A stretch of DNA of 64,000 nucleotides from Candidatus Poribacteria bacterium (GTDB lineage: Bacteria; Poribacteria; WGA-4E; WGA-3G), in contig CBDANF010000003.1 of NCBI GenBank assembly GCA_965197475.1, positions 672,001 to 736,000 on the forward strand. Direction: 5' to 3'. The notes under the pieces are model-generated. The model was not told the DNA's origin. It saw only the letters and a list, made by a program, of their open reading frames with translations, and searched no databases. The translations under genes and the position numbers were made by a program. Shown one piece after another: positions 15,696 through 15,922 of the stretch (positions are counted from its first letter, which is position 1; each line of letters starts with the position of its first letter).

Positions 15696-15762
15696 GACCC
15701 TAATCCTATGTTCCCGACGAACTTTACTTCGCAAAACCGGGGCAGGTGCCTTGAAAATATGG

Positions 15763-15791
15763 TTGACAACCGCTACCGGTTTTGCTATACT
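15763..15791 (+). promoter_or_regulatory. Consensus sigma70 promoter inside the right end of the DUF1670 element
   Basis: TTGACA (15763-15768), 17 bp, TATACT (15786-15791); no convincing ORF downstream before the TIR. Confidence 0.7.
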
Positions 15792-15922
15792 TTAGACACG
15801 TTTATCGCTAAACGCATCATTTCTCAAAGAGGATGCTCGCGATCCCAACGCAACCCACTCATTAATGATCGCTGGGAAGCCAATAAACATCAACCTTCCA
15901 GCTATCCTATGGTCATTTGATA

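Follow-up and report, generated by a model that had tools for sequence, protein, structure and literature searches.

The right end of an insertion sequence (IS)-like element from a Candidatus Poribacteria genome carries a tract that is read here as an outward promoter with a leader. The element occupies positions 13912-15926 (plus strand, 2015 bp) of the window, the whole 64,000-nucleotide stretch of DNA that was analysed, and encodes DUF1670 proteins in two open reading frames (ORFs), orfA and orfB. On sequence grounds it is plausible that the tract yields an element-encoded RNA, and a guide function for this RNA is disfavoured. The preferred reading, to which a probability of roughly 0.4 is given, is that of an accessory read-out promoter and leader, which most likely powers the expression of orfA and orfB once the right and left ends have been joined.

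In this scheme, a strong sigma-70-type promoter located approximately 160 nt inside the end would fire outward through a leader of 95-130 nt and then through the right repeat. The leader would start with a hairpin on its 5′ side, followed by a conserved unpaired block and then by a terminal hairpin, termed H4. In an integrated copy, the transcript would extend past the terminus and enter the convergent host gene from its 3′ end. Where the two ends are joined, as would be the case in a tandem copy or an excised circle, the promoter would read in the sense direction across the junction into orfA and orfB. In this way, the module would raise transposase production in the transposition intermediate alone.

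The outward promoter and its leader

The predicted promoter resides at 15763-15791 on the plus strand. It is composed of the -35 hexamer TTGACA (15763-15768), a 17-nt spacer, a TG at 15783-15784 and the -10 hexamer TATACT (15786-15791). An earlier sequence-only reading had described this promoter as pointing at the terminal inverted repeat, and a consensus scan confirmed it with a score of 11/12 and the TG before the -10 (an extended -10; the spacer ends in TGC). It is the best of six promoter-like sites in 13500-16300, where shuffled sequences hold a mean of 4.7 sites at the 9/12 threshold. Both hexamers fall within the right end, ~135-160 nt inside its terminus. The spacer is overlapped by a small hairpin and a T-run, and in the alignment the -35 lies within short inverted repeats that vary.

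Consensus sigma-70 promoters are strikingly common throughout this genome. Exact matches to TTGACA-N17-TATA[AC]T number 132, as opposed to the 3.1 expected from base composition (~40-fold), and 17 of them are located inside copies of the element. An excess of this size indicates that such sites are clearly used features in the organism.

The conservation of the promoter was assessed on a set of 94 distinct 175-nt ends, 56 of them right ends, of which the 50 with the motif TTGnTAYAHT were kept. The six left out are deletion derivatives, degenerate ends and one mis-sorted left end. As the 50 were picked by this motif, their counts for the -10 and the TG are circular. At a spacing of 17 nt, the -35 reads TTGACA in 26 of the 50 and has at least five of six matches in 37; TTGACA is found at 18 nt in eight more, giving 45 right ends with at least 5/6 at 17-18 nt. 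Two others carry TTGGAA at the -35 position. The hexamer is missing in the remaining three, namely the deletion derivatives L020 and L041, and L032 (L numbers denote individual loci or ends; the genome of the window is labelled G000 and its element copies are L001-L019). Relatives whose whole elements share ~75% identity retain both hexamers, the TG and the spacer length, whereas the segment from the orfB stop to the -35 is poorly conserved compared with the promoter. A conserved promoter in homologous elements had been named as a check on the original proposal, and it was found. Its conservation in position, spacing and sequence across diverged relatives argues that the transcript matters. 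We take the right-end promoter to be real and selected, with its activity predicted, and RNA is probably made at the right end.

The left end is less well provided. A weak promoter-like site for orfA, TTGTAT-17-TATACT (13917-13945, plus strand), overlaps the left repeat and falls below the scan threshold; a diverged subfamily has TTGTAT-17-TAAACT in the same place. The outward promoter, the right end, the left end and orfA are all on the plus strand. Given this shared strand and the weak left promoter, joining of the ends would place orfA and orfB under a near-consensus promoter.

The predicted transcript would start at ~15798. Its 5′ part (15798-15836, plus strand) was defined by folding and a helix test, and is predicted to form two hairpins: CGTTTA (15799-15804) with TAAACG (15809-15814), and GCATC (15814-15818) with GATGC (15832-15836), the latter with an inner CTC/GAG. 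The conserved unpaired block, CCAAC..AACCC.CTCAT, stands out at 15845-15862 (plus strand) as near-invariant alignment columns. The terminal hairpin H4 spans 15867-15906 on the plus strand, pairing GATCGCTGGGA with TTCCAGCTATC around a conserved loop that includes AATAAACATCA, with 87% of cells paired (helix 5). All four stems listed by the sequence-only reading are present, including GCGATC (15840-15845) with GATCGC (15868-15873) and GCTGGGAAG (15871-15879) with CTTCCAGC (15895-15902). The GCGATC/GATCGC stem did not hold as a feature of the element, as the alignment shows it to be missing from relatives and to be in competition with the conserved H4.

When 15798-15925 is folded as RNA, the plus strand reaches -27.8 kcal/mol (z -2.91, with 0 of 200 shuffles as stable), compared with a z of -0.85 for the minus strand, which 37 of 200 shuffles match in stability. 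RNAalifold found no consensus fold among 49 aligned right-end transcripts (-0.13 kcal/mol, three pairs in the repeat). A structure hand-drawn from the window copy, comprising the two 5′ hairpins, a mini-hairpin and H4, was tested after RNAalifold and reaches 81% pairing, compared with 31-43% for slid versions. In covariation score it lies above all 500 shuffles, an excess that kinship alone can produce; by the sturdier measure of pairs changed on both sides it has 10 versus 8.2 in shuffles, and 79 of the 500 reach 10. Helices 1-3 have 76-82% of cells paired and a change on both sides in 7 of 13 pairs. H4 (GAT.GCTGGGA / T[T/C]CCAGC.ATC) is mostly invariant with one doubly changed pair, and G-U is the commonest state at two of its pairs. 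At least 6 of the 11 H4 pairs occur in the minimum-energy fold of 38 of the 49 sequences. The window copy's own minimum-energy fold is without H4, the internal TCATTAATGATC pairing with the terminal repeat instead. In one lineage, the 5′ domain has been swapped for a single 6-bp hairpin, ATGTGC/GCACAT. A conserved RNA fold is weakly supported by these alignments: of the covarying structure proposed as a check, H4 was recovered in most folds, a consensus was not, and the covariation is modest.

The tract is non-coding. The original proposal had seen no plausible ORF behind the promoter, which is not literally the case, since a 70-amino acid ORF (15708-15920) overlaps the tract. However, the longest ATG-started frame over the leader varies from 6 to 99 amino acids, in differing frames, among the 50 right ends, so that the 70-amino acid ORF is not conserved. 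A 10-amino acid micro-ORF after AAGAGGATG, alike in two copies, was rejected as its stop moves and its ATG is absent in the diverged subfamily. Rfam gave no match at E up to 1 on either strand of 13500-16100, and a scan of the plus strand found no terminator-like site after the leader, between promoter and flank. There are no solo copies of the module in the genome, all 20 hits falling inside the 19 element copies or a deletion derivative. Duplexes calculated with RNAduplex between the transcript and the left end or the orfA start (z -1.3 to -5.2) reflect trivial terminal-repeat pairing and were not used.

The tract is covered by contigs of sponge metatranscriptomes (four runs, three studies), which include 15763-15925 without differences in X6 and 15770-15928 in X1. 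Their depths over the tract are of the same order as over the coding part, and contigs bridge the right terminus into sequence of secretion-tail (CTD) genes, the paralogous group to which the host gene beside the element belongs. As such contigs give no start, strand or reliable level, and DNA is possibly present in the libraries, they speak neither for nor against a transcript.

The element and its relatives

The tract had been placed at the right end of a mobile element, and this was borne out by 19 copies, defined ends and an empty site. The element begins with ATAG and ends with CTAT, the ends having been established from the comparison of copies and from the empty site. The 5.7-Mb genome holds 19 copies at 92-100% identity and one 0.5-kb deletion derivative. 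The left terminal inverted repeat, GTATCAAATGACC (13919-13931, plus strand), occurs as the same 13-mer in relatives, and GGTCATTTGATAC at 15911-15923 is its 13-bp inverted match. Together with the terminal TAT, the right repeat extends over 15911-15926 on the plus strand, and relatives at 38-39% protein identity share this terminus.

The sole long ORF of the window copy is a fused orfAB of 564 amino acids with two DUF1670 repeats (14001-15695, plus strand). The Pfam DUF1670 profile (PF07900) matches two stretches of it with E 1e-122 and 408 bits, against a gathering cut-off of 25, alongside helix-turn-helix (HTH) families. NCBIfam adds just faint HTH likenesses to IS21, IS630 and IS1 transposases. 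Most copies, like relatives with identities as low as 37-39%, carry orfA and orfB as two overlapping ORFs whose products are paralogous multi-HTH DUF1670 proteins. The window copy reads A6G6 with a slippery-looking A AAA AAG at 14792-14803 (plus strand), where 12 other same-context copies read A6G5. The one extra G fuses the two frames, and the window copy is therefore a one-base fused version; the RNA contigs have one base fewer than it at this run.

Overlapping orfA and orfB with -1 frameshifting on A AAA AAG are found in IS3/IS1-type elements. The present element has the same two overlapping ORFs with A AAA AAG at the overlap, and the fused orfAB resembles what a -1 frameshift there would make, frameshifting being predicted from the sequence. 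It differs in that both ORFs encode paralogous DUF1670 multi-HTH proteins and in that no DDE domain was detected. It is also unlike the IS630/Tc1-mariner elements, as it duplicates TT and not TA, and has no DDE domain by Pfam or NCBIfam. Scans with both libraries detected none of the DEDD, DDE, TnpB and IscB domains in the 564-amino acid protein.

The AlphaFold model of orfB (pLDDT 83.9) matches solely small HTH or winged-helix domains. Foldseek gave no match at E up to 0.001 with residues 1-120 barely tested, and a VIA fold search, in which these residues were likewise barely tested, gave a best Z of 6.4 with all matches to small HTH or winged-helix domains. There are weak likenesses to the DNA-binding domains of paired and Tc3. 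Pfam, NCBIfam and the fold searches, the last barely testing the N-terminal 120 residues, recognised no catalytic fold in orfB. Among the conserved residues is a block that reads RG..HD.G...THK.

Several observations concern the copies themselves. The deletion derivative (G000:C3:94055-94566; L020/L021) consists of ~300 bp from the left end fused to ~216 bp from the right. Present only once, at a CTD gene end, it has kept the -10 and the leader and lost the -35. Two copies of the same genome, L011 and L013, have identical left flanks over at least 40 nt and different right flanks, a mixture that suggests recombination between copies. Nucleotide diversity along the 19 copies is 0.011-0.028 in the right end versus 0.009-0.047 in the 3′ half of the coding region. 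The notion of a specially conserved right end was dropped, as diversity there is no lower than in that coding half.

Relatives of orfB occur in 46 of 176 genomes of the phylum, all within three families of one order. The wider family comprises 1018 cluster representatives (E up to 0.001), and many members lie on contigs of ~1-2.5 kb, as expected of repeated elements. Close homologues carry the source name [quoted passage not shown]. In the literature searched, no paper contained “DUF1670” or “PF07900”, and a search on Poribacteria, transposase and insertion sequence returned none on the element, as judged by titles and the starts of abstracts. It appears that DUF1670 marks a widespread, undescribed IS-like family with two paralogous multi-HTH ORFs, 13-bp repeats and a TT duplication.

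The right ends of this family vary considerably. Distant relatives at 38-39% protein identity have the same terminus GGTCATTTGATACTAT (GTATCATATGATACTAT in L128), TT flanks and CTD-type Lys-stop flanks, yet their orfB stop is followed by the terminus after only 30 nt in L127 and 38 nt in L128. As these relatives share terminus and target, the module is considered an accessory of the Poribacteria clade that belongs neither to the core machinery nor to target choice. In the subgroup L130-L133, an outward TTGAC(A/G) lies 16 nt from the terminus, showing that an outward-reading signal at the right end recurs in the family. In other relatives the right end is long, with a sequence unrelated to that of the present tract; of three such ends tested, two fold strongly (z -5.18 in L123, -3.75 in L117 and -1.08 in L125). 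In the GC-rich metagenome elements L123 (3781-3945) and L117 (2113-2310), long near-perfect hairpins are located between orfB and the right terminus.

The insertion site

The element is flanked by TT at 13910-13911 on the left and at 15927-15928 on the right (both plus strand). The left copy was identified through an empty-site comparison, and the right copy through copy junctions and the empty site. The comparison was between the L009 copy and its orthologous locus in a sister genome (L138), the two left flanks being 100% identical over 601 nt. The empty site reads ...AATTTAC-TT-TCGTATT... and the filled site ...AATTTAC-TT-[ATAG...CTAT]-TT-TCGTATT.... TT flanks both junctions in all copies, and a single TT is present in the empty site; this pattern is equally compatible with a shared core dinucleotide and with a 2-bp duplication.

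The host gene (15923-18139, minus strand) converges on the element. Its stop codon (CTA, 15923-15925) and last lysine codon (TTT, 15926-15928) are rebuilt from the element end and the TT. On the host-gene strand, insertion changes AAG-TAA into AAA-TAG, so that the final lysine and stop are restored through the duplicated TT and the terminal letters of the element. The host protein matches Ldl_recept_b, Cohesin, Dockerin_1 and FlgD_ig above the Pfam cut-off, and Por_Secre_tail below it. A tblastn search with its last 79 residues gave 53 hits in the same genome, 50 of which reach the C-terminus. The element adjoins 18 of these 50 paralogous CTD gene ends (about a third), always in the same orientation, and the remaining two of the 20 copies lie at other sites.

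Among 74 distinct right flanks from all genomes, at least 52 read ...ATRKM(L/V)I(L/R)K-stop. A further 11 lie in a palindromic repeat (TTCTTCAAAACTCGGTTTC) whose inverted copy is found on the left. As a consensus, the flanks read YTAY-TT-CAGAATCAACAT....

Insertions in the palindrome loop, GAAACCGAGTTTT-TT-CTTCAAAACTCGGTTTC, occur in four genomes (L033, L034, L048, L056, L086, L087-L090, L100, L102 and L103), and this palindrome is a repeat family of terminator-like or REP-like character. There is a resemblance between the left half of the target (YTAY) and the element's right terminus (CTAT). In L136 (G081) and L137 (G106), the left flank ends in ...GATACTAT, which also resembles the element's own right terminus.

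Two further repeats lie to the left of the element in the window. A ~39-nt unit at 13829-13868 adjoins its left flank and is found in a sister genome as at least seven tandem repeats with a period of ~37 nt (L107, 3904-4158). At 13640-13770, an inverted repeat AGGACTTACGCA...TGCGTAAGTCCT surrounds G/C-rich arms, and its summed contig depth is very high in all four RNA libraries (829 to 13907). It is probably a highly repeated small element.

Possible roles of the right end

Promoters that face outward from IS ends include OP6110 of IS6110, Pout of ISAba1 and pOUT of IS10. The present promoter resembles these in having a full -35 and -10 inside one end, directed out of the element, and differs in being followed by a conserved hairpin-forming leader of 95-130 nt. 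As it lies at the end opposite the transposase start, its transcript would not be antisense to the transposase mRNA, unlike RNA-OUT; as it faces a convergent gene, it cannot switch on its neighbour. Junction promoters are known from the circle-forming IS911, IS30 and IS110 family, where the -35 is classically in one end and the -10 in the other. The likeness here is that a right-end outward signal would drive the transposase gene only once the ends join, and that the native promoter, which lies across the left repeat, is weak. In contrast to the classical arrangement, the whole promoter is contained within the right end, ~135 nt from the terminus, and no junction was found in the genomes and RNA contigs searched. 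ISPpu10 is a further junction-promoter case (PMC12288879).

Several points weigh against the preferred reading, a read-out promoter that serves joined ends. The junction pattern was found in only 2 of 176 genomes, both looking like flanks that resemble the right terminus by chance, in a search that would overlook rare forms. No contig in the four RNA runs joins 15926 to 13912, although contigs show presence and not absence. As no catalytic fold was recognised in orfB, in searches that barely tested its first 120 residues, a circular intermediate is an assumption. A bare junction role leaves ~75 nt of H4 and loop unexplained, and the short-ended relatives manage without them. Finally, the transcript start at ~15798 is a prediction from the promoter.

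The leader could instead be a stand-alone structured RNA of at least ~130 nt that acts with or on the DUF1670 pair as a regulator, decoy or scaffold. The conserved promoter would suit this somewhat unlikely alternative, as would the 5′ hairpin, which persists as a feature though its sequence is replaced, the conserved H4 loop and unpaired block, the fold asymmetry between the strands, and the strongly folding right ends of two of the three distant relatives tested (L123 and L117, not L125). A precedent for an IS-borne small RNA beside a transposase gene is Ssr9 of ISPpu9, whose gene lies downstream of the transposase gene, in an IS that targets repeats, and which is dispensable for transposition (PMC12288879). 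Its position is shared by the module here, and its dispensability is paralleled by the absence of the module from relatives. Ssr9 differs in that it also occurs as solo modules, of which there are none in this genome, and in that it belongs to another IS family. The missing solo copies, RNAalifold consensus, Rfam match and plus-strand terminator-like site after the leader all count against a stand-alone RNA, as do the weak covariation, with H4 mostly invariant, and the relatives whose 30-38-nt ends are without the module. A near-invariant inverted repeat with one pair changed on both sides is what a purely DNA-level end might display. H4 and its loop would then be subterminal sites for the HTH proteins, which are predicted multi-HTH DNA binders, and the promoter would be incidental or part of an orfB terminator or operator region. 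The deletion derivatives L038, L040 and L054, which keep H4 and the repeat and not the promoter, agree with this, together with the hairpin and T-run across the promoter spacer and the inverted repeats around the -35. Nonetheless, this reading is unlikely: a binding site alone would not predict the retention of hexamers, TG and spacer in 45 of 50 right ends, the G-U states at two H4 pairs become A-C mismatches on the other strand, and only the plus strand folds better than shuffles. As the element lies tail to tail with the host gene, a read-out RNA would be antisense to the host 3′ end, and the tract may exert its effect on the neighbourhood, through such RNA or through collision with host transcription entering against orfB and orfA. 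This is in line with the fixed orientation at convergent gene ends (18 of 20 own copies, at least 52 of 74 distinct flanks), with the absence of a plus-strand terminator-like site from promoter to flank, and with the contigs that bridge the right terminus into CTD-gene sequence. It is quite unlikely, as the module is also kept in lineages at the palindromic repeat and not at a gene end (11 of 74 flanks), and the bridging contigs carry no strand and may derive from DNA.

An RNA guide would have either bridge-RNA-like loops that pair with target and donor, or an omega-RNA-like scaffold with a guide copied from the flank. The layout of the element resembles both systems, in that a structured non-coding end, an outward transcript and a strong site preference are combined. 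The bridge RNA system of IS110/IS1111 (PMC11208158, PMC13626964) likewise has a non-coding structured end, a strong site preference, which in one lineage here includes a palindromic repeat, and a dinucleotide at both junctions. The omega or right-end RNA of IS200/IS605 TnpB and IscB (PMC8612924) is a scaffold in the right end whose transcript runs out into the flank. The 2-nt TT at both junctions, the proteins without a recognised catalytic domain, and a target class that shifts between close relatives while H4 is unchanged, which a flank-copied guide would permit, are further points in favour of a guide. Against it, the element has 13-bp terminal inverted repeats and no detected DEDD recombinase, in contrast to IS110/IS1111, and it has terminal inverted repeats and a 2-bp duplication without TnpB, IscB or TnpA, in contrast to IS200/IS605. 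The sequence-only reading had seen no loop that matched the flanking target, and the transcript, locally aligned to the target consensus, has a score of 7, which 74% of shuffles attain (shuffle mean 7.41); for the reverse complement the score is 6, with a shuffle mean of 7.15. The suggestion that a loop might track the insertion site fared no better: L083 lies at a CTD end and L033, L034 and L086 lie in the palindromic repeat, yet they have near-identical H4 regions, and the loop of H4 does not change with the class of target. Overall the elements share 89-90% identity, the same distance as separates the two palindrome-sited lineages. A Mantel test on 16 copies found no link between element and flank distance (r = 0.107, reached by 1151 of 5000 permutations), a weak test as copies recombine. 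Most telling are the relatives with 30-38-nt right ends, which lack the module and hit the same kind of site. A guide role of either type is thus highly improbable, and, as judged from these comparisons, insertion sites are not chosen by a guide encoded in the loops of the leader. A further variant, also very unlikely though a little less so, is that the element acts as a ribonucleoprotein, in which the right-end transcript and the flank would help the HTH proteins to find or hold Lys-stop ends and other repeats; in the short-ended relatives, this part would fall to the 3′ end of the orfB mRNA. Of the original suggestion of a structural, guide or regulatory RNA, the conserved promoter and the non-coding character of the tract were upheld, while the guide is unsupported and the conserved fold weakly supported.

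Outward promoters and end-encoded RNAs are the means by which several IS families achieve self-control or target choice. A conserved structured leader, proteins in which only DNA-binding folds were recognised and a precise, gene-sparing insertion habit make the present case worth a bench test. The larger point is the element itself, which represents an apparently undescribed family with the unusual habit of inserting in the last lysine codon of secretion-tail (CTD) genes and rebuilding the Lys-stop. If the promoter is active, every copy would send antisense transcription into a gene for a surface or secreted protein of this sponge symbiont.

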